IMG/VR virus record: IMGVR_UViG_2740892431_000022
Source of the DNA: a virus
Taxonomy: Duplodnaviria > Heunggongvirae > Uroviricota > Caudoviricetes
Length of the DNA stretch: 35,244 bases
Reading direction: 5' to 3' (one strand)
The notes under the pieces were generated by a model, which was not told the origin of the DNA, did no database searches, and worked only from the letters and a program-made list of their open reading frames with translations. Each line of letters opens with the position of its first letter. Position 1 is the stretch's first letter. The translations under genes were made by a program, and so were the position numbers. Positions 1 to 32,917 of this stretch are shown here, piece after piece.

Positions 1-751
1 GTGCAGCACGAGACAAAAATGGAAAACCAGAGCTGGTTGAAAAAACTCGCACGCCGCCTGGGGCCTGGTCATATCGTTAATCTCTGCTTTATCGTGGTAT
101 TGCTTTTTTCCACCTTGCTCACCTGGCGTGAAGTGGTGGTGCTGGAAGATGCCTATATCTCCAGCCAGCGTAATCATCTGGAAAACGTAGCCAACGCGCT
201 CGATAAGCATTTGCAGTATAACGTCGACAAACTGATCTTTTTGCGTAATGGCATGCGCGAAGCTCTCGTGGCGCCACTGGATTTCACCTCTCTGCGTAAT
301 GCCGTAACCGAGTTCGAACAGCATCGCGACGAGCACACCTGGCAAATCGAACTCAACCGACGGCGCACCCTGCCAGTCAATGGCGTATCGGATGCATTAG
401 TCAGCGAGGGGAATCTCCTGTCTCGCGAAAATGAAAGCCTCGACAATGAAATTACCGCTGCACTGGAAGTTGGTTACTTGCTGCGACTGGCGCACAACTC
501 CTCGTCGATGGTTGAACAGGCGGTGTATGTCTCGCGTGCTGGATTTTACGTTTCGACGCTGCCGACCTTGTTTACGCGCAATGTACCAACGCGTTATTAC
601 GGCTATGTCACCCAACCCTGGTTTATCGGCCATTCACAACGAGAAAATCGTCACCGCGCGGTACGCTGGTTCACTTCGCAACCGGAACACGCCAGCAATA
701 CTGAACCGCAGGTTACCGTCAGTGTTCCGGTAGACAGTAATAACTACTGGT
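1..751 (+). pseudogene. dgcQ: 5' fragment of a diguanylate cyclase sensor gene (DgcQ/YedQ-like), interrupted by prophage insertion
   Basis: N-terminal TM helix plus periplasmic domain matching my recollection of E. coli DgcQ up to ...VPVDSNNYW; the frame then runs into 13 unrelated codons ([13 protein letters not shown]) and a stop at 790-792; no second TM or GGDEF domain. Identity is recalled, not searched. Confidence 0.6.
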
Positions 752-800
752 TGATCAGACATGAGATAAATGAAGGGGGATCCGTGAGATAAATAACGAA
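752..800. repeat. Prophage terminal region with two direct copies of TGAGATAAAT (762-771, 785-794); candidate transposase-binding sites
   Basis: Direct 10-bp repeat spaced 23 bp immediately inside the putative end; a looser third copy GATAGATAAG lies at 858-867. Confidence 0.45.
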
Positions 801-874
801 TTGGAGTGGGTTAACATGGGTTCTGGTGAACAGAACTGAAATTCTTTTCCGCTATACGATAGATAAGTCGGGCA

Positions 875-904
875 TTGAAATCATCCTTCCTGGCAACTTA
901 GAAT
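875..904 (+). promoter_or_regulatory. Putative sigma70-type promoter TTGAAA-N18-TAGAAT
   Basis: TTGAAA at 875-880 and TAGAAT at 899-904, about 45 bp upstream of a small ORF that has an AAGGA ribosome-binding site. Confidence 0.3.
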
Positions 905-947
905 CGAGTTTGCTGAAACATGACCCGTAACAAAAAGGATGATTCCA

Positions 948-1109
948 ATGACTACTCAAAACAATAAGCATGACAGCCTGGATTACTCAGAAAAGCCCAA
1001 AAGCAAGCACATTGTGACGTTCGAGCGCGATTCCGGTAGAAAAGGAGAATCGTCTTCCTCTGCCAATAAAACCACTATGCCGGCAGCTCCTGCTCCAGGG
1101 AAAAAATAA
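948..1109 (+). CDS. Small hydrophilic hypothetical protein (53 aa)
   Basis: ATG at 948 preceded by AAGGA at 8-nt spacing; hand-translated as MTTQNNKHDSLDYSEKPKSKHIVTFERDSGRKGESSSSANKTTMPAAPAPGKK; below the ORF-track size cutoff; convergent with the 1113..1746 gene. Confidence 0.3.
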   Translation: MTTQNNKHDSLDYSEKPKSKHIVTFERDSGRKGESSSSANKTTMPAAPAPGKK

Positions 1110-1112
1110 ACA

Positions 1113-1746
1113 TCATTCATCGTTCGTTGCACGAACGCGCCTGATCTCCACTCTGGCAATCTGATCTGCTGGAATATAGGTTGCCAGAGCTCCCCAGTAC
1201 TTATCAACCACGCCTTTATACTCTTCCCATTCGTTACTTCCTGAAGGGCTGCTGTGCGTGACGTAAAGAACCATATCGCCTTTATTTCCCAGGGTAAACG
1301 GACCGTTAGGCCACTCTTCAAAGTTCCCTGGCAGCCGTGACATCATACCGGAACCATCGCGAAGAATCACTCTGACCTCGGTGACGCTGAAGCCTGTTTG
1401 ATCAAACATTGCCTGCCATGCTGAGCTGGTATTGTCAGACCATGAAATATCATTATTCCACAGTAATCTGTACATCCATTTGCGACCGTACCTGCGCCAC
1501 CACGCACCGCATGTAACGGCACACAGAAGTGCTGGGGGGGTTGCCAGCCAGGCATTCAGACCTGCCCACATAACAGCCTGGTAAGCCATCATTGCTGTCA
1601 GGCCAAAAATCAGCGAAGAAAAAGTCACCTCAATGGGTTTGTGGTGATCCTTCAGCCCCACATTCGCAATAAAATACCCAATATAGCCACTGGTCAGGGT
1701 CACCAGTGTTGCCCATGGCAGATTTAATAACGAAACGTCAAACATA
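1113..1746 (-). CDS. Polytopic membrane protein (about 3 TM helices plus a roughly 110-aa C-terminal domain), cargo gene at the prophage end
   Basis: ORF 1113..1823; start assigned to the ATG at 1746 (MFDVSLL...) preceded by GGGAGA; hydrophobic helices LPWATLVTLTSGYIGYFIANVGL, VTFSSLIFGLTAMMAYQAVMWAGL and WLATPPALLCAVTCGAWW; no family recognised. Confidence 0.7.
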
Positions 1747-1780
1747 TTTTCTCCCTGCATCCTGAATATTACATAGAGAG

Positions 1781-1813
1781 CATAAAAAAAGCACGGTAAA
1801 GGGTCTACCGTGC
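1781..1813 (-). terminator. Rho-independent terminator downstream of the Mor-like gene
   Basis: On the minus-strand RNA: 8-bp stem GCACGGUA/UACCGUGC (1792-1799 with 1806-1813), 6-nt loop, then a run of 7 U (plus-strand A-run 1785-1791). Confidence 0.7.
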
Positions 1814-1859
1814 TCTTATACAATAAGGAGATTTTTGAAAGGACTTTAACAAGCAGGAA

Positions 1860-2258
1860 TTATCTGGATTTGTTAACGTCTTTCGTCTCCTCTGGCAGAT
1901 CTTCATCAAACAACCTGCCCTGCATCCGATCCAGTTCTTCTTTTCTGACCCGCTTAACCACGCTGTAGACCCACTGAAGCGAAACACCAAAATTGCGGGC
2001 CAGTTCGTGGTGGTTGCGTCCGTTAAACTCCCTGAAGATTTCCCGGTCGCGCTGACTGACCTTCCATACCATGCCCATCGGGAAATAAACGTTTTGCCCG
2101 CCCCAGACCTGCATCATTCGGTTCGCGACGGCCTGACCAATCTGGTCGGCAATTGCGGGCTCAATATCAATAATCTCGCGAACGGTCTCAGAGGTATGCT
2201 GTGCCAGTTCCACCAGGAGTTCCGGCCCTTTACTTCGAAACTGATTCAGGTCGCTCAT
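1860..2258 (-). CDS. mor: Mor/C-family transcriptional activator (middle operon regulator-like)
   Basis: Family signature ...GGQNVYFPMG...RDREIFREFNGRNHHELARNFGVSLQWVYSVVKRVR; GGGAG ribosome-binding site upstream; last gene of the early operon. Confidence 0.88.
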   Translation of the reverse strand: MSDLNQFRSKGPELLVELAQHTSETVREIIDIEPAIADQIGQAVANRMMQVWGGQNVYFPMGMVWKVSQRDREIFREFNGRNHHELARNFGVSLQWVYSVVKRVRKEELDRMQGRLFDEDLPEETKDVNKSR

Positions 2259-2682
2259 GTTTTACTCCCGCAGCTCTGCGCTGCCACTTCTTCAGTTTCT
2301 CAATAACACTGCTTGCCTGTTCAGTATTGAGCCAGCGCAGGGCGCTGATGCCCGTTTCCCGCTTGATCCACCGCGCTAATGCATTTTCTGAACGGTCACG
2401 AACAATGCCGGCAGCAGCCATTTCAAGCCATAGCGCACGGATTTTCCTGGACTGCGGATGGTTATCCAGCGGTAAACCGGAGCTGGCTTTTCTGGCAGGC
2501 TTAACGCGAAAGCCTTTCCTTTTCATGGATTCCAGCACGCAGTTTAGTTGTGTGGTATCCATTCCTTTGGTTGAGGCTTTACCGGTCAGCCCCTGTAACA
2601 TCTGGCGGTAGGTGTCTTCATCCATACCCAGTTCATTACGGGCAATATGAATGAGCTGGATAAGACGTTGTTTAGTCATCAT
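2230..2682 (-). CDS. gemA: GemA-like protein (Mu gp16 family)
   Basis: MMTKQRLIQLIHIARNELGMDEDTYRQML...KRKGF matches the Mu gp16/GemA pattern; AAAGGAG ribosome-binding site before tandem ATGs at 2682 and 2679. Confidence 0.8.
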   Translation of the reverse strand: MMTKQRLIQLIHIARNELGMDEDTYRQMLQGLTGKASTKGMDTTQLNCVLESMKRKGFRVKPARKASSGLPLDNHPQSRKIRALWLEMAAAGIVRDRSENALARWIKRETGISALRWLNTEQASSVIEKLKKWQRRAAGVKHERPESVSK

Positions 2683-2887
2683 CGTTGCTCCTTTTACCTG
2701 CGCCACCGATATAATCGACATATAAAGGAAGCGCCACAGGCCAGCACAGGAACATCACCGACCAGCTAATCCAGTAGCCGGCACCACTGTAACGTGAATA
2801 AAACCCTGAACGGCGGTGCAGTTCAGCAGTACACCAACCGACAAAACAATACCAGAACAGGGCACATACAACAGATTCAGCCGTCAT
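2672..2887 (-). CDS. Small hydrophobic protein (71 aa)
   Basis: Internal ATG at 2887 of ORF 2672..3043, preceded by GGGGGGA; hydrophobic core VVCALFWYCFVGW / WISWSVMFLCWPVALPLYV. Confidence 0.4.
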   Translation of the reverse strand: MTAESVVCALFWYCFVGWCTAELHRRSGFYSRYSGAGYWISWSVMFLCWPVALPLYVDYIGGAGKRSNDDD

Positions 2888-3107
2888 TCTGAATATCCCC
2901 CCAACTGATATGAATATTACGGGCAGCAATGACAGGGTCGTTATTCCACCATGCACCTGACATGTATTTTTCAACCTGTTCGCGTCCGGCAATAACACCA
3001 ATTGTGATCCCCGGCCTGACGTTCTTAAAAAAGGCGCGGGCAAAAAGGTATCTGGCAGATATTCGGCAGGCTTTTAATTTCCGGCTGTTACCTGATAGCG
3101 TAATCAT
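2877..3107 (-). CDS. Hypothetical early protein (76 aa)
   Basis: ATG overlaps the stop of the upstream gene in an ATGA arrangement (3104-3107), suggesting translational coupling. Confidence 0.45.
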   Translation of the reverse strand: MITLSGNSRKLKACRISARYLFARAFFKNVRPGITIGVIAGREQVEKYMSGAWWNNDPVIAARNIHISWGDIQNDG

Positions 3108-3787
3108 CTGGCCTCCAGTTTCTGTTGTTCCTGCCCACTGACCGGGCGGTGCAGTCTGACGTTCTGCCCTTCACGAAACCCCGCATAGCGCGAGGCGTCG
3201 CCATTGCGGCTTCTTCCCGGTTTACGCGCCCTGGTGGTTTGCGTCTGCGGGTATTTATGTTCCAGCCACTGCTGCATCAGTTCACGCTCATCATCGGTCA
3301 GGGCAAAGGACTGTATTTCACTGATAACGGCCAGCACCCAGCCTTCGGCAAACTGGTCTCCACGGCTGGTGCGGGTGGCGGTTTTTATTCTTTTGTTCTG
3401 TGCACTGATATACTGCTGACGCGCCTTTTTCAGCTGACGGGCCAGCACTTCCCAGGTGTATGCAGCCAGTGCCGCACGTTCCCGGTTGCCGTAGAACCCC
3501 ACAGACGGGTGCGTGCCGGGGTGAATGATGGAGTTAACACCAAATACCTCGCGGATGATGTTCATCAGGCCCAGCATGTAGCGCGGTGGACGGAGACTGC
3601 CTGTCGGCCAGTAGTGACTGATGGTTTCATCAATATCACTCATAGCAATGTCGGAATGTGTGATGCCGTGAACATCCATCAGTTTACGGGCTCGGCGCAG
3701 TGCCAGAGCGGCCTCGTGCGGGTTGCCGGATGCGGCCAGCGCCAGCAACTTTTTCAGTTTCTCAATGTGTTTATTCTGGTCTGTCAT
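3104..3787 (-). CDS. Early protein with a DUF2786-like N-terminal motif
   Basis: KLKKLLALAASGNPHEAALALRRARKLM motif; start placed at the ATG at 3787 (MTDQNK...), which overlaps the stop of the 3784..3999 gene as ATGA; alternative start at 3823. Confidence 0.65.
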   Translation of the reverse strand: MTDQNKHIEKLKKLLALAASGNPHEAALALRRARKLMDVHGITHSDIAMSDIDETISHYWPTGSLRPPRYMLGLMNIIREVFGVNSIIHPGTHPSVGFYGNRERAALAAYTWEVLARQLKKARQQYISAQNKRIKTATRTSRGDQFAEGWVLAVISEIQSFALTDDERELMQQWLEHKYPQTQTTRARKPGRSRNGDASRYAGFREGQNVRLHRPVSGQEQQKLEAR

Positions 3788-3999
3788 TGTTCTGTATCTC
3801 CGGTATTTTTCTGCCGTTTCCATGCCCGGACAGCGTCGGACAGCTCTTTCAGGCTGTATGCTGCTTTAAGCTTTTCCCATAACCACTGTGTTGTTATGTG
3901 CATCAGCAGGGCAGCCAGGGCTGCCCCCGCACTGAGGCATGTCGCCAGGCCAGTAAGAATCAGTGTCCATGCGGTGATTTCCCTGAGTATGTCAGCCAT
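3784..3999 (-). CDS. Small membrane protein (71 aa)
   Basis: GGGAGG ribosome-binding site 5 nt before the ATG at 3999; one predicted TM helix (WTLILTGLATCLSAGAALAALLM). Confidence 0.55.
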   Translation of the reverse strand: MADILREITAWTLILTGLATCLSAGAALAALLMHITTQWLWEKLKAAYSLKELSDAVRAWKRQKNTGDTEQ

Positions 4000-4013
4000 T
4001 GAATGCCTCCCGG

Positions 4014-4310
4014 TTACTCGTTCGTGTAAATCACGCCCAGTCGTGCAGCCAGACGTTCCAGTTTTTTCTGTTTGTGGAAGTCAATCAGCCGGTCCATCCC
4101 CTGAAGGCGCAGTTGCTCTGTCATGATTTCCACGTCTGCCAGCTCTGCCGCGAGGTCACTTTCGCTGCCCTGTCCGTTCAGGTTGCGGGCGGCACTGGCC
4201 GCCAGTTCAGCGGCCTCTTCTGCCAGTTTCAGGGCCTGTGCGTCCGGCCCGAAACGCTGCAGGGCCAGACGGTAGAGGGCGGTGCGGGTGAGTTCGGTGT
4301 TTCGTGTCAT
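4014..4310 (-). CDS. MazG-like nucleotide pyrophosphohydrolase domain protein (98 aa)
   Basis: EEAAELA...ELADV acidic motif pattern typical of the MazG/HisE all-alpha NTP pyrophosphatase fold; GAGGG ribosome-binding site. Confidence 0.55.
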   Translation of the reverse strand: MTRNTELTRTALYRLALQRFGPDAQALKLAEEAAELAASAARNLNGQGSESDLAAELADVEIMTEQLRLQGMDRLIDFHKQKKLERLAARLGVIYTNE

Positions 4311-4319
4311 GCCGCGCCC

Positions 4320-4592
4320 TCAGTGCTTCCGGCTGACGGTGATGTGCAGGCCGCCTTCTGCAGTGGTTTCCATCCGGTACGGCACCTCATGCTCTGCCGT
4401 GTGGGTGAGTGTGTTCATCAGTACCTGCAGGGCAGCCTCCTTTCCGTTGGTCGCCACAATGGCCTGTGTGGCCATGCTGATTAGCGCCGTCAGGACGTGA
4501 TTCACATCGGTGAGGTCGCGGCATTCACACTCGTTGACATAGTGTTCAACAAGGGTTCGGGTGCGCTGTCGTGCTTCCTGTGGGGTAATCAT
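4320..4592 (-). CDS. Hypothetical early protein (90 aa)
   Basis: GGGAGG ribosome-binding site; ATGA overlap with the stop of the upstream Zn-ribbon gene. Confidence 0.6.
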   Translation of the reverse strand: MITPQEARQRTRTLVEHYVNECECRDLTDVNHVLTALISMATQAIVATNGKEAALQVLMNTLTHTAEHEVPYRMETTAEGGLHITVSRKH

Positions 4593-4783
4593 TGCGCGTC
4601 CTCCCTGTCAGGGCGGGAGAATTCCATGACGGGCACGTCCGCCGAAAAATGCTGGCTGCAGTACGGGCAGACCAGGGTGACACGTACTGCAGGTATGTGA
4701 TACTTACCGGACATCACGGCGATGGCGCTGTGAAAACGCAGGGCTGTTATATCCCTCTCGCACTGAATACATTTAAATATCAT
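4589..4783 (-). CDS. Zn-ribbon protein (CxxC...CxxC, 64 aa)
   Basis: Cys pairs at residues 5/8 and 39/42 (CIQC ... CPYC); GAGGAG ribosome-binding site. Confidence 0.6.
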   Translation of the reverse strand: MIFKCIQCERDITALRFHSAIAVMSGKYHIPAVRVTLVCPYCSQHFSADVPVMEFSRPDREDAQ

Positions 4784-4880
4784 AATTTAATTCTCCTCTG
4801 TTTCCGGCGTGCAGAAGCCCACGGCGCTGACGCCGGAATAAAAAAGAAAATGTTTTTATTAAATAATTAACGTGGTGTGT

Positions 4881-5411
4881 TTACTGCACATCCTGCTCAA
4901 AAGGAATTATTGAAAAATCCTCAATGTCGCTTTTAATGGAAATACCGGGAATATTTTTCACGGCCTCTTTTTCATTCAGAATGGCATCTTTATTTATTTC
5001 CTCCTTTACACGAATAAAGCGCTCAAGCCCCAGACGTCTCAGCAGTTCAATGACATTATCCGCCCCGCGAATGCTGACTGACGGCGGACGGTTTCGCCAC
5101 TGCACCTCGCCGGTGGTGAGGTTAGCGAACTTCACCTTCCCGTTGCCGGTCAGTTCATCACGGTGCGCCTCACACCATGTCTGGATACCGGACTGCAGTT
5201 CGGCCATGCGTTTTTTCAGGCTCTCGGTGAGCGGGGCATAACGTGCAGTGATGTCGCCAATGGTGTCATTCATTTCTGTTTCAGCCCTGACCAGTTCACG
5301 TTGCGCGTCACCAAGCAGTCTGATTCCCTCAATGACCTCTTCGCGTGTCCCCGGCACCCAGAGTGCTGCTGCGGCTTTGATACGTTTTGCCCCTTTTGTA
5401 CTTTTTGCCAT
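4881..5411 (-). CDS. gam: Host-nuclease inhibitor Gam (Mu Gam family)
   Basis: MAKSTKGAKRIKAAAA...WCEAHRDELTGNGKVKFANLTTGEVQWRNRPPSVSIRG...FIRVKEEINKDAIL...EDFSIIPFEQ closely follows my recollection of Mu Gam. Confidence 0.88.
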   Translation of the reverse strand: MAKSTKGAKRIKAAAALWVPGTREEVIEGIRLLGDAQRELVRAETEMNDTIGDITARYAPLTESLKKRMAELQSGIQTWCEAHRDELTGNGKVKFANLTTGEVQWRNRPPSVSIRGADNVIELLRRLGLERFIRVKEEINKDAILNEKEAVKNIPGISIKSDIEDFSIIPFEQDVQ

Positions 5412-5438
5412 ATTTTATGACTCCTCCTGTTGTGCTGA

Positions 5439-5708
5439 TTACCACAAAGATTCCGGCCACACGACGCGACAGCCGTGCAGTTCGAAAACGCCCTGACGGA
5501 AATATCCCCTGTGGTCATGTCCGGTATACAGATAACAGGCCTTTCCCTGCTCAAGCATGCGCATGCAATGCGCACTCCGGGAAACGCGGATGACAGGTTT
5601 GTTACCCCTGATGGTGATGCTTTGTACATCCGTGTTCGTCGCCTTAAGCGCCATAATGGCTGACTGCACTTTGCTGATTTGCTGGTTGATACCTGTGGTG
5701 GATTTCAT
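5439..5708 (-). CDS. Hypothetical early protein (89 aa); positional analogue of the Mu kil/cim region
   Basis: AAAGGGG ribosome-binding site; start abuts the stop of B; no family recognised. Confidence 0.55.
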   Translation of the reverse strand: MKSTTGINQQISKVQSAIMALKATNTDVQSITIRGNKPVIRVSRSAHCMRMLEQGKACYLYTGHDHRGYFRQGVFELHGCRVVWPESLW

Positions 5709-5710
5709 TA

Positions 5711-6877
5711 TTAAACCCCTTTGACAACGTCAGCGTTGACCTGTGGAACCCCGATTTCAGCGGCCAGATTCATGGCGGCTATCACCAGGTTACTGACGGC
5801 CAGCGGATACAGCAGGCTGACCATATTTTTACGATGACTTCCCGGATTGCTCAGGCGGGCACGTATGGCATCCACTGCGCTGGCGTCCATAATGTCCGTC
5901 AGTTGTTTACCGGCCCGTTGCAGTTTGAACGTCAGAAATTCTTCAAGGTTATTGTCCAGAGGCAGAAGTTCGACCACCTCACAACGCTGAACGACTTCAC
6001 GGACTTCCATATTGCGTTCAGACAGTTTTGTCGCCAGTTCCGGCTGGCCAATCAGCACGATGGACAGCAGTTTTTTGAAACCGGACTCCAGCTCAAAAAA
6101 GCGTTTGAGGTGTTTCAGTGTCGGAATGGGCAGACTGTGGGCCTCCTCAATCACCAAAACGTGGCTGAACCCCGCCTGGCTGCTGTCTTTCAGGACGCGA
6201 TGCAACTGGCGAAAGCGGGCGTCCTGACTGCGTCTGATGCTTTCCAGTGGTGCGATGGTACTGATAATGGCTTCGGCAATCGCTGCTGCCTTCAGGGTTT
6301 TCCCTTTCACATCGTTGTCTTCCATAGCGATGATGTATGGCTCGATAACAATTACCGGCGCATTCTCGCGGTTGATACGTTCAGTCAGGTCGCGGCGCAG
6401 CGTGGATTTACCCGCACCGGACTCACCGATGACGGCCATAAACCCACCATGACGGGCTGTCTGGTACAACGCCTCACGCACGTAGCGAATGTCCGGGGTG
6501 GTGAACACATCATCAGAACCCTGCATGGCTTCATCGGCGAACGGGTCACGGAAAAGACCAAACGCTTTTTTGGTTGCTGGAAATAACACCTGTTTTTTGA
6601 GTAACATATTCTCTTCCTCACTGAGGCTCGTTTTATCTGTGGTACCCGCTGTACGGGGCGTGGCTGCGCCCTGTACAGCATCAAAACTCTTCGTTGTATC
6701 AATCCCCTGACTTTCCAGCCAGGACGCAAGACGCCGGCGCACTTCTCCGGGGCTGGTGCGGGGCCACGCGTTATGATTCACAATCTGGGCCAGCGTGGCC
6801 TCAGAAACATCGACAGCTCTCGCCACCACCGCCTGTGGGATACGGGCCTCTTTCAGTTGCTGCTTCAGTACCAGCAT
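5711..6877 (-). CDS. Transposition ATPase B (MuB-like AAA+ protein)
   Basis: N-terminal HTH-like segment, Walker A GESGAGKST, Walker B-like VLVIEEAH; start placed at the ATG at 6877 with a strong GAGGAGGAA ribosome-binding site (ORF extends to 6916). Confidence 0.88.
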   Translation of the reverse strand: MLVLKQQLKEARIPQAVVARAVDVSEATLAQIVNHNAWPRTSPGEVRRRLASWLESQGIDTTKSFDAVQGAATPRTAGTTDKTSLSEEENMLLKKQVLFPATKKAFGLFRDPFADEAMQGSDDVFTTPDIRYVREALYQTARHGGFMAVIGESGAGKSTLRRDLTERINRENAPVIVIEPYIIAMEDNDVKGKTLKAAAIAEAIISTIAPLESIRRSQDARFRQLHRVLKDSSQAGFSHVLVIEEAHSLPIPTLKHLKRFFELESGFKKLLSIVLIGQPELATKLSERNMEVREVVQRCEVVELLPLDNNLEEFLTFKLQRAGKQLTDIMDASAVDAIRARLSNPGSHRKNMVSLLYPLAVSNLVIAAMNLAAEIGVPQVNADVVKGV

Positions 6878-6887
6878 GTTTTCCTCC

Positions 6888-8657
6888 TCAGTTGCCGTTA
6901 ACAATGCTGATAACACTGCTGCGTGCCGGCGTGGTCAGCGTGGCCATGACTTCATCCAGTGCAGCTTCCGGTACGCCGTCCGGGTACTGTGCCGTTAACT
7001 GGCGGTAATGTTCCGGCGTCCAGGTAAGGCCGTCGGCGCTGAACTTATCGCGCAGGGCTTTCGCGGCCTCCACATGAGTCATGGGACGTTGTTCAGTGCG
7101 CGGCCCGCGTACGTCAGAGGCCTGACCACGCTTCGGCATATAGGCCGGAAGTGTGGTGTCGTCGATATGTTTATACGGGTCAAGCCGCCCGCCGAACGGC
7201 AGCGCCTTCGCCTTGCGTGCGGCGGCTGCATCTGCGGCGTTGTCTGTACCGGTAACCAGCGCTTCAGTTTCTTTTGCCGCCATCTGTGCCGAGGTTTCCG
7301 GCAGGGCTTTGTAACTTTCGCCAAATACCGCCGCGCCTTCAGCAAAGCCAAACTCGTTCTTTCTGACCTCTTCGACCAGGAAGAACGTCTCGTGGCCGTC
7401 CTCACCGGTCAGAACCACCTGTGCCACATCGCTGCGCCATGGGTTACGGGTAATCATCAGTTTTTCACCAACCAGTACGCCCGGTACCGTTGATACGTCA
7501 AATTCAGTGCCCCGGAACGAGACACGAAGTTTTGGCGTGACTTTGCGGAGTTCTGGTGCCGCCACAGCCAGTTCACGACATACCTCAACGGAAGGCGCTT
7601 TTTTCAGCTGCTCAGCAGTAATCTTCAGCCAGATATCCGTGCGGGTTTTACCGTGGCGGCTGTGAACAGCCGTGGCGTTAAAGTGGCTGCGCCATTTCGC
7701 GGCCAGCGCGTTGAGTTCTTCCAGACTGTGAACCGGCCGGAACTTCAGCCCCGGCTCCAGCTTGCGTTCGATAATGTCACGCGCCTTTTCCACCTGTCCG
7801 GTGGCGCGGGCGTTATGCGGCTTGTGCGCTATCAGGTCGATGCCCAGTGAGCGGCACATGTTTTTCGTCATACCCGCGGTGTTTGCCGAGCCGGGGTCGA
7901 GATAGAGTATTTTCGGCACGCCGTGCAGCACGTCTGCGCCGCCACGCTCCTGCATGGCGTTGATAAGCACAGAACACAGGTTCTCACCTGATTCCGCGCC
8001 CGTCACATACTCAACGTAAATCCAGCCGCTGGCATGGTCGGTAATCTCGTAACTCCACACGCGGTCACTGGCGATACGGGCAAGGTTAGCGGGCTTGTTC
8101 TTGTAGAACTTCGCGCTGTCCATCACCTGCAGCCCTTTATGTCCATTGCTCAGGTAGTAAAGCGTGCAGAGTGAGGCGTCAATCTGCCAGACATGATTGG
8201 GATGCAGACTGGCCACTTCGGTATGTGGTGCAGGGGCATCCAGTTGTTCCGGGTGCAGGCCATAGTTACGCAGAGCACGGCTGATGGCATCTTCAGACAA
8301 CGGGAAAAACTCACTGGTGGTTTCATCTGTTCTGCCTGCGGTGATAAAGCCGTTAGCCCGCAGGGTTTCCACTGCATCTGCGATGGAATAGAGACGCTTA
8401 CCGTTCTTGCGGGTGGCCTCACGCAGTGTGGCAGATATCAGCGCGGCTTCGTCGCGGGTCAGGGCGCTGCGCCCGGCATCGGCGCGTTTTTTGCGTTTAT
8501 CAGTCACAGAGACCTCCTTCAGCCTGCGCAGCAGAGTGGCGCGGGACATGCCAAGTTCAGCACAGGCAGCGTCGTATATTGCACCGCGTTTACCATGCCC
8601 CGCGTCACGTGCCGCGCGGGCGACATAAACCAGTCGTTCAGTCAGGGCAGCATTCAT
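6888..8657 (-). CDS. Mu-type DDE transposase A
   Basis: 589 aa; N-terminal DNA-binding region, central rve-like core (...HVWQIDAS..., ...LYLDPGSANTAG...) and C-terminal region; GGAGG ribosome-binding site; immediately upstream of B. Confidence 0.92.
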   Translation of the reverse strand: MNAALTERLVYVARAARDAGHGKRGAIYDAACAELGMSRATLLRRLKEVSVTDKRKKRADAGRSALTRDEAALISATLREATRKNGKRLYSIADAVETLRANGFITAGRTDETTSEFFPLSEDAISRALRNYGLHPEQLDAPAPHTEVASLHPNHVWQIDASLCTLYYLSNGHKGLQVMDSAKFYKNKPANLARIASDRVWSYEITDHASGWIYVEYVTGAESGENLCSVLINAMQERGGADVLHGVPKILYLDPGSANTAGMTKNMCRSLGIDLIAHKPHNARATGQVEKARDIIERKLEPGLKFRPVHSLEELNALAAKWRSHFNATAVHSRHGKTRTDIWLKITAEQLKKAPSVEVCRELAVAAPELRKVTPKLRVSFRGTEFDVSTVPGVLVGEKLMITRNPWRSDVAQVVLTGEDGHETFFLVEEVRKNEFGFAEGAAVFGESYKALPETSAQMAAKETEALVTGTDNAADAAAARKAKALPFGGRLDPYKHIDDTTLPAYMPKRGQASDVRGPRTEQRPMTHVEAAKALRDKFSADGLTWTPEHYRQLTAQYPDGVPEAALDEVMATLTTPARSSVISIVNGN

Positions 8658-8660
8658 TGG

Positions 8661-9575
8661 TTATGCCTCCAGCCCGTTAATCTGTGGCGTCGGCTCAGTC
8701 AGCCATGAAGGCGCTGCATTGCCTGTTGGCTCGTCCGGCAGGTCAAATGTGGAGCGCAGGCTACGCGCTGTGCTTTCCAGTTGACAGACCAGGCCTGCCA
8801 TGAAGTCTCTGGGGGTATCAATCATGTTTTCAGCACAATATGCGCACAGCGTCTCAAAAGCGCTGGACAGTCGGACGGCGATAGCAGATTCCGCCTCAAC
8901 CGCTAATGCTGTTACTTCCGCCCGCAGCTTCTTAACCTCCTCATCAGGCTCAGGCGGCTGAATACGGGATTTCTTCTCCAGTCTGGTGGAGAGTGAATCT
9001 ATTTTTTCATTTTTGTCGGCGAGTACGCGCTGTTGTGCTGCGTTGGTTTCGCGCGCTTCGCGCAGGGCCTGACGCAATTCACGTACTGACATGCGATCAA
9101 CGTCGTCAAGCGTCAGGCCGGCAACTGTGCCGCCGTCGGCCAATTCATCAAGTTCTTCATTATCCAGAACCATCAGGTCGTACAGTTTGGCTTTCCCCAA
9201 AACGCTCAACGTTGAGCGTTTTGTTGGCTCATCACCTTCTCCCAAAAACTTCATACTGGCTTGCATCATGCGGCGAGCAACTTGTGGTGCAAGTCCGAGT
9301 TCATTTTCTAAAATGTTTGTAAAATCACCGTGTGGCTCATTTTCTTTTAAGATGATCAGCCGCTTACCCGCTTCCAGCATAGATTCAGCACTCTGCGCCA
9401 TATAAAAACGTGCTTCGTGAACAATGCGATCACGTTCATAAGGCAGTCCATCACCAAACTGCTGCATAATTTCCATGCGATGCTGTGTCATAGCGTTCAA
9501 ATTGACATTGATGTTATCTGACAGCGGAACCTCAACATTCAGTTCAGTGTTAACGGGTGATTTGGTGCGTCCCAT
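8661..9575 (-). CDS. Early protein, acidic with a predicted coiled coil (304 aa), function unknown
   Basis: AAGGAG ribosome-binding site; lies between the regulators and A; no confident family assignment. Confidence 0.7.
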   Translation of the reverse strand: MGRTKSPVNTELNVEVPLSDNINVNLNAMTQHRMEIMQQFGDGLPYERDRIVHEARFYMAQSAESMLEAGKRLIILKENEPHGDFTNILENELGLAPQVARRMMQASMKFLGEGDEPTKRSTLSVLGKAKLYDLMVLDNEELDELADGGTVAGLTLDDVDRMSVRELRQALREARETNAAQQRVLADKNEKIDSLSTRLEKKSRIQPPEPDEEVKKLRAEVTALAVEAESAIAVRLSSAFETLCAYCAENMIDTPRDFMAGLVCQLESTARSLRSTFDLPDEPTGNAAPSWLTEPTPQINGLEA

Positions 9576-9585
9576 TGATTACTCC

Positions 9586-9894
9586 TTACAAACGACTACC
9601 TGAAATAACTCGTTGGTTGATTTCGTTAATACGATCCTGTGCACGCGCCATCTCGTGACTGTGAGCCATGGCGATCTGTAGTAACTGGATTCCCGGTGCG
9701 AAACGTCCGTTCTCTAATTTCATGGCCAGTCCCTCTTCAATAAGGGTATTAAGTGCTCGATTGATATTCGCCGGGGACTCCCCCAGGGCTGATGCCAGTT
9801 CACCGTTAGAAACACCGTTCAGAGCATGACCGCGTAGAGCTTTGAGTACACGTAGGATGCGGGTCCCAGAACTGGAAATATTTACTTTACTCAT
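9586..9894 (-). CDS. Winged-helix (IclR/MarR-like) DNA-binding protein
   Basis: ...SGTRILRVLKALRGHALNGVSNGELASALGESPANINRALNTLIEEGL... resembles a wHTH; start at 9894 (MSKVN...) preferred over 9957; neither start has a strong ribosome-binding site. Confidence 0.55.
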   Translation of the reverse strand: MSKVNISSSGTRILRVLKALRGHALNGVSNGELASALGESPANINRALNTLIEEGLAMKLENGRFAPGIQLLQIAMAHSHEMARAQDRINEINQRVISGSRL

Positions 9895-9910
9895 GTCACA
9901 TTTCCATTTT

Positions 9911-9941
9911 TGCAATATGTGATAACCTGTTGCATATGTGG
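9911..9941. promoter_or_regulatory. Direct repeats TGCAATATGTG (9911-9921) and TGCATATGTGG (9931-9941), spaced 20 bp
   Basis: Related copies at 10154-10163 (TGCAATGATG) and 10172-10181 (ATATGTGATA) in the divergent promoter region. Confidence 0.35.
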
Positions 9942-9946
9942 AAAAT

Positions 9947-10135
9947 TTATGCCGCATTTGACGTGGGTTTTAATCCCAGTTTTACGGCAATTTCATGGGC
10001 TTTGCCGTAACGAGCTTTGGTCTGTCCATTGAGAACACGATAGACCTCATTGCGGCTGTAGCCGTGTTCTTCGGCCCAGCGGGTAAACGTGATACCACGC
10101 TGACGGAAGAGATTTTTAACTTGTTCGGAAGTCAT
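9947..10135 (-). CDS. ner: Ner-like DNA-binding protein (Ner/Nlp family)
   Basis: 62 aa; ...FTRWAEEHGYSRNEVYRVL...GKAHEIAVKLGLKP parallels the Mu Ner HTH and C-terminal segment; AAAGGAGA ribosome-binding site; first gene of the leftward operon. Confidence 0.75.
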   Translation of the reverse strand: MTSEQVKNLFRQRGITFTRWAEEHGYSRNEVYRVLNGQTKARYGKAHEIAVKLGLKPTSNAA

Positions 10136-10182
10136 TGTTGTCTCCTTTGTTGATGCAATGATGTTTGTTTTATATGTGATAG

Positions 10183-10211
10183 ATTATGAGAACTATTGTT
10201 CTCATTGTCAA
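10183..10211 (-). promoter_or_regulatory. Early promoter Pe (minus strand): -35 TTGACA, 17-bp spacer, -10 CATAAT
   Basis: Reverse complement of 10206-10211 is TTGACA and of 10183-10188 is CATAAT; about 45 nt upstream of the ner-like ATG. Confidence 0.6.
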
Positions 10212-10214
10212 TGA
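10186..10214. promoter_or_regulatory. Operator-like palindromes overlapping Pe
   Basis: ATGAGAAC-tatt-GTTCTCAT (10186-10205, 8-bp arms) fills the Pe spacer; TCATTG-t-CAATGA (10202-10214) overlaps the -35. Confidence 0.55.
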
Positions 10215-10221
10215 GGTTTGT

Positions 10222-10647
10222 GTGAATTTTGATTCTCTTTGCGCGTCGCGGTTCAAAGCTGAGCGTTCGCGGTTATCACTCAAGCAGGCTGAAGTAGCAG
10301 CCCTTTGTGGCGTTTCAAGAGAAATGTGGGGGAAATATGAACGAGGGGTTGCTGTTCCCGGAGGTGAGTTACTTGCAGCCTTTGCAAGAATTGGGGCCAA
10401 TGTACAGTTCATTCTTACCGGGGAGTCATCAGGTATAACTTTATCACGTGATGAAATGGAGTTACTGCAGCACTACCGGCAGGCACCATTACAGGTCAAA
10501 GGTTCAGTTTTGTCGGCCTTGACTACTGGCTCCTCCAGAGAACGGGCGGAACAGGTTATTCATGGAGATGTTCTGGGGAATGTTATCAAAGGTAACGTAA
10601 CCATAGGAACAGGTGGAATAATGAACAAAAATACCAAGAGAAGATGA
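10222..10647 (+). CDS. XRE-family HTH repressor-like protein
   Basis: HTH ...LSLKQAEVAALCGVSREMWGKYERG...; divergent from the ner-A-B operon; GTG at 10222 has GAGG 5 nt upstream; the ORF-track ATG at 10186 lies inside the operator palindrome (a leaderless start there is not excluded). Confidence 0.7.
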   Translation: MNFDSLCASRFKAERSRLSLKQAEVAALCGVSREMWGKYERGVAVPGGELLAAFARIGANVQFILTGESSGITLSRDEMELLQHYRQAPLQVKGSVLSALTTGSSRERAEQVIHGDVLGNVIKGNVTIGTGGIMNKNTKRR

Positions 10648-11630
10648 GTAAAGAGAAGCAAACAGTTAACGGGGATGTGGGTAACGTTGTCAGCGGTGAT
10701 GTTACCATTCATAACTATTCTGCTGACATACTTCCTTCGGCCCAGCAACCAATTTCGTTGCTGCAAAAACGCGATTTACACAGATTGATGGATGAATTGG
10801 TTGATCTGGGGGAAAGTAAGCGCGAGCTATGGATGACGATCCACACGAAACTTAATACCAAAACAGTTAATGAAATGACTGCGGCTGATTATCATGGTGC
10901 GGTTGAGATCCTTCAGAGATATGCACAACAGATCCAGAATATGAAGGACTGTAATCTTCTGGTCAGCAAAATAATGGCGCTTACTGACCCTGGGTATCGT
11001 CTTGACCGTGACAGATACTGTCTGAAGCATTTCGGTACAACCCATCTTAAAGGCCTAGACAAAGAGCAGTTGCAGGCTGTGTTTGGTTATTTTGATGATC
11101 TGCTGAATATTCGTGATGAGAGTAAAACTCTATCACCTCCATCGGAAAGCGGTGCAAAATCAGTCGCAACTGTACCAACCAGAAGCTGGAAGCCTCATGT
11201 AGTAGTGTTGGGGGGAGTGTTAGTTCTTGTAGCAATATTTTTCGTGGGAATGATTGTGTTCGCTGGTAAATGGGGAAATGCCAAAGCAGTAGCTTCTACT
11301 GAAACCAGCGTTTTTAACATTAAAACCAACGATAAAATAATAGAAGATTCCATCCCCGCACTGCGCAGCATGTTTCCAGGGTTAAATAAGTACTCAGATG
11401 ATTTCCATTCGGTTTCAAGCTACAAGCAAAAAACGGGCTGGCATACCCTTAAATTTACTGTATCAGCAAAGGCATCCGTCCCCGAAAATTATAGTGTTAA
11501 GGGCAAGGTTTGTTACATTAACATAAGCCCTGATGGTAGTTATGCTCGGGTTTTGACTGCTCCATGTCGTTCACTGCTACTTGATCAGCAAAGCACTCCT
11601 GACAGTAAATACCGTTTTATTCTTAAATAG
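10644..11630 (+). CDS. Single-pass membrane protein (328 aa), unknown function
   Basis: ATG overlaps the repressor stop (ATGA); roughly 180-aa N-terminal domain, one TM (HVVVLGGVLVLVAIFFVGMIVFAG), roughly 120-aa C-terminal domain with two Cys; sampled GC about 33-47 percent. Confidence 0.75.
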   Translation: MSKEKQTVNGDVGNVVSGDVTIHNYSADILPSAQQPISLLQKRDLHRLMDELVDLGESKRELWMTIHTKLNTKTVNEMTAADYHGAVEILQRYAQQIQNMKDCNLLVSKIMALTDPGYRLDRDRYCLKHFGTTHLKGLDKEQLQAVFGYFDDLLNIRDESKTLSPPSESGAKSVATVPTRSWKPHVVVLGGVLVLVAIFFVGMIVFAGKWGNAKAVASTETSVFNIKTNDKIIEDSIPALRSMFPGLNKYSDDFHSVSSYKQKTGWHTLKFTVSAKASVPENYSVKGKVCYINISPDGSYARVLTAPCRSLLLDQQSTPDSKYRFILK

Positions 11631-11720
11631 AAAATAACAGCTGAATTACCATGGGATCAGAAAAAAGACAAAGGCGGCATCATGCTGCGTTCTGAAATTT
11701 TAATGTAAAAGGTGATGAAC

Positions 11721-12302
11721 ATGGCAGGGATTCAGGTTATCGCAGGAAGTTTTCCTAAAGGGTGGGCAAGCATGGGGTTCGGTACCATCGTGTTTGCCAA
11801 AAAACCAAAACAAGGCTTTCCTGAAAATATTGTATTAAATCTGAAAGAAGAGCTTTTATCGATTGAACTTGCGGATAGTGAAGAGGAAAACCGTATAGGT
11901 AAGGCGGCAGGCGCAGGTTTGCTTGGTGGATTAATCTTTGGTGGTGCAGGGTTGGTCATTGGAGGTTTGCTTGGTGCGGCGGACAAGACGAAAAAAACTA
12001 TCACTTTTAAGGCAATGTTTACGGGAAATAGGTTACTTCTGGCTAAAACAGATTCAAAAACTTTTGTAAAACTTCAGTCAATTGCTGCTGATAATGCCCA
12101 TAACGCATCTGTAATCAACATGAAGCAAACTAATAGGGGCGATGTTTCTTCTCGTAAACAACTAACAGAAAATCCACAGCAGCAAGACTTACCTGCGCCC
12201 GCTACAACAGTAAAAATGACTGCCAAAGATAAGTTAGAATCGGCTCTTGGGCTGGGAATCATCGTTATAGCTGTTTGGGCAATAATACACTTCTTTTTTT
12301 AG
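11721..12302 (+). CDS. Glycine-zipper membrane protein (about 193 aa), unknown function
   Basis: AAGGTGA ribosome-binding site before the ATG at 11721 (ORF opens at 11712); AAGAGLLGGLIFGGAGLVIGGLLGAA segment plus C-terminal hydrophobic helix LGLGIIVIAVWAIIHFFF. Confidence 0.7.
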   Translation: MAGIQVIAGSFPKGWASMGFGTIVFAKKPKQGFPENIVLNLKEELLSIELADSEEENRIGKAAGAGLLGGLIFGGAGLVIGGLLGAADKTKKTITFKAMFTGNRLLLAKTDSKTFVKLQSIAADNAHNASVINMKQTNRGDVSSRKQLTENPQQQDLPAPATTVKMTAKDKLESALGLGIIVIAVWAIIHFFF

Positions 12303-12304
12303 TG

Positions 12305-12328
12305 CAGCCCTTCAGGGCTGTTTCTGTT
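12305..12328 (+). terminator. Putative rho-independent terminator after the cargo operon
   Basis: Stem CAGCCC/GGGCTG (12305-12310 with 12315-12320), loop TTCA, then TTTCTGTT. Confidence 0.5.
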
Positions 12329-12339
12329 CAGGAGGTATC

Positions 12340-12816
12340 TTAAGGATTATCCGGGGCGTTTTCCTGTTTGCCGTACTTCGGAGACGAACAACATTCTGTT
12401 GGCTGACCGGTGAGTTTACGTAACTCCTTCATGAGCAGCTCCTGATCGTAAACTGTCATCAGTGCCGCAATGGTGGCATGCAGTGCATCGGGCAGTATCC
12501 AGGGTTGCCGGCCCGTGGGGCATATAACATCCAGCAGCTCATTCGTCCGACAGATACGCTCCTCGCCGTATGACAACAGGCCCTGTCCCGTGTATTCCTC
12601 TAGCCTGATCACTGTGCCACCCCGTGGCTTCTGCCAGGTCGTCAGATCTTCGCCATTCATACGGCGCTCATTCTCCACGTCAGCAGCATCGACAATGACG
12701 CTGTTTCCGAGTTCCTGTTTCACCATCTCTTCTATCCGCGCCAGTACGTAACTTTTACCGCTGCCCACAGGACCGGACACAGTGACAGTGATGACCGGAT
12801 TCAGTGTGTGCGTCAT
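12340..12816 (-). CDS. Small P-loop NTPase or kinase-like protein (158 aa)
   Basis: Walker A GPVGSGKS at residues 15-22, then VIVDAAD; AGGAGA ribosome-binding site; opposite strand to both neighbours. Confidence 0.75.
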   Translation of the reverse strand: MTHTLNPVITVTVSGPVGSGKSYVLARIEEMVKQELGNSVIVDAADVENERRMNGEDLTTWQKPRGGTVIRLEEYTGQGLLSYGEERICRTNELLDVICPTGRQPWILPDALHATIAALMTVYDQELLMKELRKLTGQPTECCSSPKYGKQENAPDNP

Positions 12817-12877
12817 ATCGTATTCTCCTCTGTGAATAATTCATCGTTTATCCTGCACATCCCGTATCCCCGGCTCT

Positions 12878-12927
12878 CTTAACGCGCTTTAAAATCCTTC
12901 GCGCCCTGTATTTGTGATGCTGTCTCC
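12878..12927 (+). promoter_or_regulatory. Putative late promoter for the lysis operon
   Basis: CTTAA (12878-12882), TTAAAATC (12889-12896) and CTGTCTCC (12920-12927); the same arrangement recurs upstream of two other late operons. Confidence 0.4.
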
Positions 12928-12946
12928 ACCAAACGAGGAGACACAC

Positions 12947-13297
12947 ATGAAAAACCTGAAAAAATTCATTCCCCCTGTTAAAAAACCTCGCCTCAGCGGC
13001 TGGCTGCTGACCTCAGTGCTGTTGCTGGGCACCATCGCTCTGGTCTCACCACAGCAGCTGCCTGTTGTGATCTACAAGCTGGCACTCATCACGCTGGCAG
13101 CAGTGCTGGGTTACTGGCTTGACCGTTCGCTCTTCCCCAAAGCCCGTCCCGGTCAGTACCTGAAACATGACGACAGGCTGATGGCTGAAGGGCGTTTCCC
13201 GGTACAGACCGGCCTTCACCTGGTGTTTTCTGCTGCGTTAATCCGCCGTGCACTGATTGTTGCAGCGGTCTGCCTGGCTGTTGCGATGGGGCTTTAA
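12947..13297 (+). CDS. Putative holin (3 TM, 116 aa)
   Basis: GAGGAG ribosome-binding site; three hydrophobic helices; immediately upstream of the endolysin. Confidence 0.6.
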   Translation: MKNLKKFIPPVKKPRLSGWLLTSVLLLGTIALVSPQQLPVVIYKLALITLAAVLGYWLDRSLFPKARPGQYLKHDDRLMAEGRFPVQTGLHLVFSAALIRRALIVAAVCLAVAMGL

Positions 13298-13299
13298 TC

Positions 13300-14040
13300 A
13301 TGAACTGGCCGCAGATCACCTGGATTGTATGCATGTCCCTGAAACTGGCTTTCGAAGCCTTTCGGGTCTTCATCAGAACCGAACGCCTGTCAGTCCGCGC
13401 CGGGACCTTTCTGGTTCATATGGCATGGGTATTCTTTGTCGCAATGTTGCTCTGGTGTGGCGGCTTTTTCAGCCAGGCATGCGCAGCACAACCTCCGCAG
13501 GCTGCGCTGCAGTATCGCGATGATGTGATCCGTAATGCCCGGCTTGAATGGGGACTGTCTGCGCCGGTGGCCGATTTCGCCGCGCAACTGCATCAGGAAA
13601 GCGGCTGGCGACCTGATGCGATCTCGCCGGCTGGCGCTCAGGGACTGGCGCAGTTCATGCCTGCCACTGCCGACTGGATAAGCCAGTTGATACCGATGCT
13701 GAGCAGTCGTGAGCCGTTTAATCCGGCATGGGCTATCCGGGCGCTGGTCAGCTATGACCGCTGGCTGTGGCAGCGTGTCAGCGCCGCCAGTGACTGCGAG
13801 CGTATGGCCATGACACTGTCGGGCTATAACGGTGGTCTGGGCTGGGTACAACGGGACAGGCGGCTTGCATCACAGAAAGGTCTGGACAGCACCCGCTGGT
13901 TCGGACATGTCGCCACGGTGAATGCCGGACGCAATGCGGCCAGCTGGCGGGAGAACCGCCATTATCCGCAGCGCATCCTGCGCGAACTGGCACCGCGATA
14001 TCTCACATGGGGAGGCAGCAGTTGTGTGGCATCTGGTTAA
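13300..14040 (+). CDS. Endolysin, lytic transglycosylase with an N-terminal signal-anchor (SAR-like) segment
   Basis: SLT-type motif ...LHQESGWRPDAISPAGAQGLAQFMPATA...; hydrophobic N-terminal segment WVFFVAMLLWCGGFF. Confidence 0.8.
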   Translation: MNWPQITWIVCMSLKLAFEAFRVFIRTERLSVRAGTFLVHMAWVFFVAMLLWCGGFFSQACAAQPPQAALQYRDDVIRNARLEWGLSAPVADFAAQLHQESGWRPDAISPAGAQGLAQFMPATADWISQLIPMLSSREPFNPAWAIRALVSYDRWLWQRVSAASDCERMAMTLSGYNGGLGWVQRDRRLASQKGLDSTRWFGHVATVNAGRNAASWRENRHYPQRILRELAPRYLTWGGSSCVASG

Positions 14041-14674: not shown

Positions 14675-14997
14675 CACTGCAGGTTGAATTCTGGACGGTG
14701 GTGAGTTTTTTGCTCACCTTCATGGGGTTTGTGGGAGGGCTCGCCAAATGGTTGTTCAGTAAAACAGAAGAACGCCAGGCGGCACGATTCGCCTCTCTTG
14801 AACAGGCCCTGCAACAGTCCGCATCCAACTGGGGCGAGCTGGAAAAAGAATTTATGCGATTTAAAGCGGATTTACCGCTGAATTATGTCCGTCGCGAGGA
14901 TTATATCCGTGGCCAGACAGTCATCGAGGCCAAACTGGACGCGCTTTATAACAAACTGGAAGTGGTACAGCAGTACCGCAATACCGGAGGTCAATAA
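14671..14997 (+). CDS. Small membrane protein with coiled coil (108 aa)
   Basis: ATGA overlap with the Rz stop; one TM (FWTVVSFLLTFMGFVGGLAKWLF). Confidence 0.6.
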   Translation: MTLQVEFWTVVSFLLTFMGFVGGLAKWLFSKTEERQAARFASLEQALQQSASNWGELEKEFMRFKADLPLNYVRREDYIRGQTVIEAKLDALYNKLEVVQQYRNTGGQ

Positions 14998-15308: not shown

Positions 15309-15310
15309 TT

Positions 15311-19668: not shown

Positions 19669-19670
19669 CA

Positions 19671-20270: not shown

Positions 20271-20319
20271 CTAAAGCAGATTAAAATCGCCGGGCCTGCA
20301 TTTCTCACAAACTGTCTCC
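20271..20319 (+). promoter_or_regulatory. Putative late promoter for the head protease/scaffold operon
   Basis: CTAAA (20271-20275), TTAAAATC (20281-20288), CTGTCTCC (20312-20319), with the same 31-bp box spacing as at 12889/12920. Confidence 0.4.
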
Positions 20320-26160: not shown

Positions 26161-26167
26161 CATCACA

Positions 26168-26190
26168 GGGGCTCCGGCCCCTTCTTCTTA
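26168..26190 (+). terminator. Putative rho-independent terminator
   Basis: GGGGC-tccg-GCCCC (26168-26181) followed by TTCTTCTTA. Confidence 0.5.
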
Positions 26191-26236
26191 ATCTCCTTTA
26201 ATATCCGTCACGCGCTTCTCCCGACATACTGCCCTG
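26187..26236 (+). promoter_or_regulatory. Putative late promoter for the tail operon (diverged copy of the late motif)
   Basis: CTTAA (26187-26191), TTAATATC (26198-26205) and CTGCCCTG (26229-26236) at the same spacing as the other two sites. Confidence 0.35.
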
Positions 26237-32863: not shown

Positions 32864-32917
32864 GCTTTTTAAACGCCTTTAATATCAGCGTTCCCGCACG
32901 GGGGCAATACTGCCCCC

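Follow-up and report, generated by a model that had tools for sequence, protein, structure and literature searches.

The window, that is the whole 35,244-nucleotide stretch of Caudoviricetes DNA that was analysed, carries two divergent sets of genes, the early genes reading leftward between about 10.2 and 1.86 kb and the late genes reading rightward from about 12.9 kb. The early genes follow the order Ner-like HTH, IclR-like wHTH, DUF3102, rve-type DDE transposase, AAA+ B-like ATPase, gam, small ORFs, gemA and mor (Table 1). The mor ORF encodes 132 amino acids and runs from an ATG to a TAA. The predicted early promoter Pe sits upstream of the gene for the Ner-like HTH protein (9947-10135), the span from Pe to mor being about 8.3 kb, and the terminator stem just past mor was the best terminator-like site within positions 1-20000 of the window. 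The gemA-mor order is also present in Mu, BcepMu, B3, JBD25, a Pasteurella phage and a Shewanella phage, and is thus a conserved end of the early operon. Seven small ORFs gave no Pfam match, and no other regulator domain was found among the small early ORFs.

Table 1. Positions in the window of mor, its neighbours, and the predicted early and late regulatory elements (each late element is given as motif, spacing and -10-like hexamer, with its position weight matrix (PWM) score)
Feature	Position	Strand	Details
mor, sole Mor/C-family transcription activator gene, last of the early operon	1860..2258	-	Pfam PF08765, PHROG 532
gemA homologue, directly upstream of mor	2230..2721	-	Pfam GemA PF06252, E=7.7e-41
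Pe, predicted early promoter	10183..10211	-	TTGACA-17-CATAAT; top sigma-70 match in window, 11/12 positions
Intrinsic terminator just past mor	1777..1817	-	14-pair stem 1817..1787, then T-run
IclR-type wHTH gene	9586-9894		
Left-end cargo gene	1113-1745	-	210-aa membrane protein
Left-end cargo gene	948-1109	+	
P1, predicted late promoter (lysis and packaging)	12879..12921	+	TTAACGCGCTTTAAAATC, 19 nt, GATGCT; PWM 27.6
P2, predicted late promoter (head protease/scaffold and capsid)	20271..20313	+	CTAAAGCAGATTAAAATC, 19 nt, CAAACT; PWM 29.5
P3, predicted late promoter (tail chaperone, tape measure, baseplate)	26188..26230	+	TTAATCTCCTTTAATATC, 19 nt, CATACT; PWM 22.2
P4, predicted late promoter (baseplate W/J, tail fibre)	32869..32911	+	TTAAACGCCTTTAATATC, 19 nt, AATACT; PWM 20.8
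P1 reverse face	12850..12892	-	19 nt, CAGGAT; PWM 21.8
Weak motif-like site between mor stop and terminator (doubtful)	1807..1849	-	TTAAAGTCCTTTCAAAAA, 19 nt, CACGGT; PWM 13.9

The call of this gene and its assignment to the Mor/C family, both made in the preliminary description, were found to be correct. The protein matched the whole of the Pfam Mor profile (positions 1-107 of 107) with a score of 146.4 bits against a curated cut-off of 24.9 (E=3.6e-43), which places it in the Mor/C family, and it also matched PHROG 532, 'late transcriptional activator'. Its only relatives by sequence among solved PDB structures were those of Mor (1rr7 and 9l0y) and of C (9l0x and 9vw8). Pairwise identity of the window protein is 31% with Mu Mor and 35% with Mu C, at almost the same score for both (about 54 bits), and the two Mu proteins are closer to one another (76.6 bits) than either is to the window protein. 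In an NJ tree, the window Mor fell in a separate clade (100% bootstrap), outside the group made up of Mu Mor, Mu C and the Vibrio and Shewanella proteins (82%), and did not form a group with Mu Mor that left C out, which argues against orthology with Mu Mor. Since Mu Mor and Mu C fall together in a clade from which the protein is excluded, the choice between 'Mor' and 'C' is here one of family name only.

Twelve residues of the window Mor (G53, G54, Y58, P60, G62, F78, G80, N82, E85, L86, Y98 and R105) were invariant in a six-sequence alignment with Mu Mor and C, and both hallmarks of the family were present, the beta-strand linker (GG..Y.P.G) and the C-terminal HTH (F.G.N..EL ... Y ... R). 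Y58 and P60 align with Y75 and P77 of Mu C, which contact DNA (10.1101/2025.05.02.651988). The recognition helix, SLQWVYS, matches neither that of Mu Mor (TFNTVYK) nor that of Mu C (SQPQIYQ); the form S(L/M)QW(V/I)Y is common to the Mor proteins of those phages that carry the late motif described below, which form one clade with 100% bootstrap. Clamp-binding motifs, of which at least one is required, have been described as an N-terminal Qx[D/E][L/M]F and/or a C-terminal QPDLF-like sequence (PMC12867686). The N-terminal MSDLNQF of the window Mor is degenerate and off this consensus, and the motif is supplied by the C-terminal QGRLF, which aligns with QPDLF of Mu C and reads QGKLF or QRDLF in relatives. 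In about 527 of the 641 E. coli genomes with this mor, homology ends near position 1900 of the window, just past the QGRLF codons, so that the acidic C-terminal tail of Mor and the left-end cargo make up a swappable cassette.

The number of Mor/C genes was assessed using the window protein as a tblastn query and using an HMM built from the window Mor, Mu Mor and Mu C, which was run unfiltered and at maximum sensitivity on all six-frame ORFs. No second paralogue better than E=0.45 was found in the window by tblastn. The HMM gave a single match in the window, and likewise a single one when the complete prophage and its flanks (L001, 48 kb) were searched, both at about 1e-55, the next best being at an E-value of about 1 in the window as in the 48 kb, that is, no paralogue. 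As a control, the identical HMM recovered both Mor and C in Mu. The single Mor/C regulator previously described for the window was thus confirmed, tblastn and the three-sequence profile each giving one homologue and together excluding a second paralogue within it.

The complete prophage was taken from NZ_OZ547117.1, which is 100% identical to the window over its final 5.2 kb and in which the right end of the prophage lies about 3.3 kb past the window. To the right of the window lie a tail fibre gene, a tail-fibre assembly gene, an inverted assembly-gene fragment and the gene for a Gin-like recombinase, followed by one half of dgcQ; no regulator gene was found there, either in the annotation of the full prophage or using the Mor+C profile over the 48 kb. 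The earlier suggestion that a C-like gene might lie beyond the window was therefore abandoned, such a gene being ruled out for the complete prophage by the right-end annotation of NZ_OZ547117.1 and the 48-kb profile scan. The start of the window (1-751) is the N-terminal half of dgcQ (yedQ, a cellulose-regulating diguanylate cyclase) with its CHASE7 domain, the C-terminal half lies at 41557-42504 of L001, and ACTGG(T) is duplicated at both of the junctions by which the prophage splits the gene. The two halves of dgcQ and the duplication indicate that the prophage is complete and that it transposed into dgcQ; by the annotation and the profile scan it has exactly one Mor/C gene. It is present in about 640 of 5,426 complete E. 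coli genomes.

Three further observations concern the prophage as a whole. Two TGAGATAAAT repeats at its left end (about 762-795) and related ATAAATG repeats at its right end are probably transposase-binding sites. The tail fibre gene, the assembly gene, the inverted assembly fragment and the Gin-like recombinase gene stand in a row (L001 37915-41476), an arrangement suggestive of an invertible segment for host range, of the Mu G or P1 C type. At about 29100-29490, within the tape-measure gene (26751-30032; 1093 aa), there is an extra 330-bp tandem copy that the otherwise near-identical prophage of NZ_OZ547117.1 (983 aa annotated) lacks, and a longer tape measure would predict a longer tail.

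With its rve and AAA_22 domains, gam, a gemA-mor left end, divergent early and late genes and a target duplication, the prophage has the characters of the BcepMu/B3 type. The layout is identical to that of BcepMu, in which gp01, a single 'Mu protein C/Mor' homologue, stands at the extreme left end, and the same layout with a single left-end Mor/C gene recurs in phiE255, PhiKM and KP12, the proteins being 51-91% identical. These Bcepmuvirus relatives differ from the window prophage in the cargo genes of the left end and the immunity region; Escherichia phage PhiKM, which is classified in Bcepmuvirus, has 95.5% DNA identity over the early region. We know of no Mor/C regulator of the Bcepmuvirus group that has been tested experimentally. 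The regulator of KP12 was named RdgB by its annotators. RdgB of Pectobacterium carotovorum is a lone chromosomal Mor-family activator that does not lie in an intact transposable phage, and is a reported direct activator of damage-inducible lysis, pectin lyase and bacteriocin genes. The B3-type phages (B3 with ORF1, JBD25, and Fc02 with mor) also carry early and late genes that diverge, and their single mor closes the early operon next to the genome end; their proteins are more distant (about 24-35% identity) and their tails are of the siphovirus type. RNA-seq of Fc02, a phage of the same layout with one mor, placed mor last in the pE operon, with the late clusters on afterwards (PMC9936078).

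The frequency of single regulators was surveyed in 50,697 phage records with the window protein as tblastn query, which gave Mor/C homologues at 99 match places in 85 records. Among the 60 listed of these 85 records, two copies occurred only in Muvirus (Mu, D108, SfMu, Mu-like Yersinia phages and similar), and one copy was found in records from Burkholderia, Pseudomonas, Vibrio, Pasteurella, Shewanella, Klebsiella and others; BcepMu, B3, JBD25, the Pasteurella phage and the Shewanella phage gave one match each. Published work on transposable phages also counts 'the late regulator Mor/C' as one hallmark gene (PMC8705779). The premise implied at the outset, that one regulator is unusual, does not hold among the 60 listed records, and since one regulator is the norm outside Muvirus, the single Mor/C gene is no anomaly.

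Four plus-strand intergenic sites (P1 to P4, Table 1) share an 18-nt motif, YTAA-N6-TTAAWATC, followed at a 19-nt spacing by a -10-like nAnnnT hexamer, with no -35, and with a G/C-rich 6-mer and then a purine after the hexamer. Before this analysis, three or more similar late promoter motifs had been proposed; the motifs are real, and there are four of them. Transcription is predicted to start near 12929 at P1, 20321 at P2 and 26238 at P3, the respective ATG codons being at 12947 (holin), 20344 and 26258. At P4 the hexamer is followed by GCCCCC and then by the gpW ATG (32918), a Shine-Dalgarno sequence is absent between hexamer and ATG (32906-32920), and the transcript, the baseplate W mRNA, is probably leaderless. 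The hexamer-to-ATG distance at P4 is also 6-7 nt in KP12, BcepMu (gp49), the Ralstonia phage and the Pasteurella phage (ORF38). Terminator-like sites lie upstream of P2 (20112-20129 and 20195-20208), and a terminator (26167-26182) abuts the motif of P3. No full sigma-70 promoter was called at P1 to P4, because the -35 position reads ATCnnn, and the -10-like hexamers of all four are weak. No further copy of the motif was found in the full prophage with one mismatch allowed.

As the motif pattern had been derived from the window's own sites, the PWM used to score the window was trained on 12 sites only, from BcepMu, the Ralstonia phage and the Pasteurella phage, none of them from the window. P1 to P4 were among the top five matches in the window, with scores of 20.8-29.5; none of 300 shuffles reached 20.8, the shuffle maxima having a mean of 9.9 and a standard deviation of 2.9. 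Elsewhere in the window the score did not exceed 9.2, besides the reverse face of P1 (21.8) and the site past mor (13.9). The reverse face fronts a divergent P-loop cargo gene (12340-12816, minus strand), and in KP12 a CAGAAT is found at equal spacing before a different, unannotated divergent ORF. We tentatively suggest that the P1 dyad may be a bidirectional activator-dependent promoter, which would drive the cargo gene late. The weak site past mor lies upstream of the membrane-protein cargo gene, in the variable left-end cargo region, a region absent from most related E. coli prophages and from PhiKM. Its position recalls that of the Mu middle promoter, Pm, which overlaps the early terminator; it was rejected as a fifth Pm-like site owing to its marginal score, the location of its hexamer inside the terminator stem and its place in a variable cargo cassette.

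Four syntenic motif sites were also found in Klebsiella KP12, BcepMu, Ralstonia YO107_2 and Pasteurella AFS-2018a, the 19-nt spacing being kept in 20/20 sites across GC-rich and AT-rich genomes and two early-region layouts. KP12 retains the motif and the hexamer but differs in spacer and flanks, P2 included, and P1 is conserved in both PhiKM and KP12. The Pasteurella site is a perfect palindrome, TAAAGCGCTTTA, which identifies the element as a dyad with the half-site TAAAGC. The early region of Pasteurella AFS-2018a is Mu-like and collinear, unlike the BcepMu layout, and despite this different early layout its Mor belongs to the clade of the window Mor (100% bootstrap). The motif thus tracks the Mor clade and not the early-gene set, and this sequence-based correspondence is the main argument that the window Mor would bind the motif. 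A literature search, whose reach did not include the original BcepMu paper (J Mol Biol 2004), found no description of BcepMu-type late promoters.

In Shewanella MuM16-1 the single regulator groups with Mu C, and an element, TAATCCCGAAACC, which resembles Mu Plys, is repeated upstream of the lysis and protease genes. This arrangement fits the idea that lone Mor/C proteins drive late promoters directly, the type of operator following the clade of the protein. In MuM16-1 (L016) a 26-nt repeat, TAATCCCGAAACCTTTCCAATCCGCT, stands upstream of the lysis and protease genes at 10400-10430 and 21968-21995, and it resembles the C-dependent promoters of Mu.

The reading that we consider probable is that of a BcepMu/B3-type prophage in dgcQ in which a single Mor/C activator would run an early-then-late programme, with no middle tier, by activating the late promoters directly. 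Of the two alternatives offered in the preliminary description, the C-like gene past the window fell away, and direct activation of the late promoters by Mor stands as the best-supported reading; judged from gene content, promoter geometry and conservation, all four late promoters are most likely activated directly by the one Mor-family protein. Upon induction, Pe (10211-10183, minus strand) would transcribe the early operon of about 8.3 kb leftward, with mor last before a strong terminator. The Mor-family protein would then bind the dyad YTAA-N6-TTAA (ideally TAAAGC|GCTTTA), centred near -43.5, at the four promoters, and would recruit sigma-70 RNA polymerase as a class-II activator in the manner of Mu Mor at Pm, switching on the lysis/packaging, head, tail and baseplate/fibre operons. 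Recruitment of sigma-70 RNA polymerase has been described for the Mu Mor and C activation complexes using cryo-EM (10.1101/2025.05.02.651988). The delay that a middle tier provides may be replaced by the distal position of mor in its operon and, more speculatively, by clamp dependence through QGRLF. Binding by Mor, activation, start sites and timing are all predictions of this model.

Three other explanations were weighed against direct activation by Mor. The true late activator could be a C-like paralogue outside the window, with Mor acting only at a middle promoter as in Mu. Two paralogues are indeed present in Mu, D108, SfMu and the Mu-like Yersinia phages, and the window stops short of the right end of the prophage; however, the roughly 3.3 kb past the window hold only tail-fibre genes and a recombinase, the HMM gave one match in 48 kb, the complete BcepMu genome also has one Mor/C gene, and only variable cargo lies downstream of mor, so that we give this explanation almost no credence. 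An unrelated second-tier activator, on which or with which Mor would act, is unlikely but less so. It could be a small early ORF, the IclR-like wHTH protein or a gp26-like protein: the seven small ORFs without a Pfam match leave room for a non-homologous co-factor, an IclR-type wHTH gene is present, and there is the marginal motif-like site past mor. Against this, the late motif has half-sites and geometry of the Pm type and travels with the Mor clade although the early regions differ (Pasteurella phage versus BcepMu), and no copy of it stands upstream of any regulator gene.

It was also considered that the motif might not be an activator site at all, but a site for a nucleoid protein, the transposase or a packaging factor, or AT-rich punctuation by terminators. 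The motif is AT-rich and palindromic, it abuts a terminator at P3, and both faces of P1 score well. However, the distance to a -10-like hexamer is fixed at 19 nt in 20/20 sites, the distance from hexamer to start codon is fixed and short, and the ends of the phage carry a different repeat, TGAGATAAAT. Fixed spacing to both hexamer and start codon is expected of a promoter and not of a structural site, and this explanation is accordingly rated very improbable, below that of an unrelated activator.

A single regulator is ordinary for this phage group, and what the analysis adds, modestly, is the regulatory map and the Pm-like character of the late operators. A Mu-centred expectation is corrected: outside Muvirus, transposable phages have as a rule one Mor/C activator, and a lone Mor/C gene is by itself no sign that anything is missing or unusual. 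The by-product is a testable regulatory map with one early promoter, one activator and four (possibly five) predicted activator-dependent late promoters. The Pm-like operators are a starting point for asking how labour was divided between Mor and C after their duplication in Mu, and the prophage offers a second natural system in which the recently reported clamp dependence of Mor/C activators could be tested. A bolder combination of claims is possible but rather doubtful: that a Mor-type operator together with a C-like clamp motif represents the ancestral two-tier circuit, the three-tier cascade of Mu being derived from it by duplication, and that P1 is bidirectional and P4 leaderless. If this were true, Mor of Mu would have kept the ancestral operator but only at Pm, and C would have evolved a new specificity for late promoters; the symmetric site of P1 would fire both ways, making the neighbouring cargo gene late, and P4 would give a leaderless baseplate-W mRNA.

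The late promoters were compared with Pm of Mu. The Mor site at Pm, which was mapped by experiment, covers 16 bp and consists of a pair of 5-bp inverted repeats around a G/C-rich 6-bp spacer; it spans -51 to -36 and is centred at -43.5, in a promoter with a -10 and without a -35 (PMC4287176, PMC4390567). In the Mu sequence the element reads AGTAA-AGCCGG-TTAAT (9173-9188), and TATCCT occupies 9211-9216. The annotated middle promoter (9163-9233) contains the element, which also overlaps the terminator after mor. The window late promoters and Pm coincide in their TAA...TTA half-sites, in the 6-bp spacer and in the 19 nt to the hexamer, and the BcepMu element CTAAAGCCGATTAAA differs from that of Mu, GTAAAGCCGGTTAAT, at 3 of 15 positions. 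Pm scores only 8.7 with the family PWM, and the likeness is therefore limited to the dyad core and the geometry and does not extend to the whole promoter. C sites, in contrast, have the form TTAT-N5-6-ATAA (PMC12867686). No such sites are present at the window late promoters, which argues against orthology with Mu C, and with their YTAA-N6-TTAA sites these promoters are Pm-like and not C-like.

The window gene and protein share features with both of the Mu activators. Like Mu mor (gp17), window mor belongs to the same Pfam family, follows gemA and stands at the end of the early operon with a terminator behind it, much as a terminator overlapping Pm follows mor in Mu. Orthology with Mu Mor is not supported, as there is no second Mor/C gene and only the terminator and variable cargo lie downstream of mor. 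The window protein also lacks the N-terminal extension of about 20 aa and the N-terminal DLF motif of Mu Mor, and its predicted targets are four late operons, whereas Mu Mor acts on one middle operon that encodes the second activator. As with Mu C, the window Mor is the predicted direct activator of four late promoters with a -10 and without a -35, two of them at places equivalent to those of C (lysis and head protease I), and its C-terminal QxxLF with a short tail resembles the QPDLF clamp-binding motif of C (PMC12867686). The two genes differ in their setting, window mor lying in the early operon and Mu C in the Mor-dependent middle operon.
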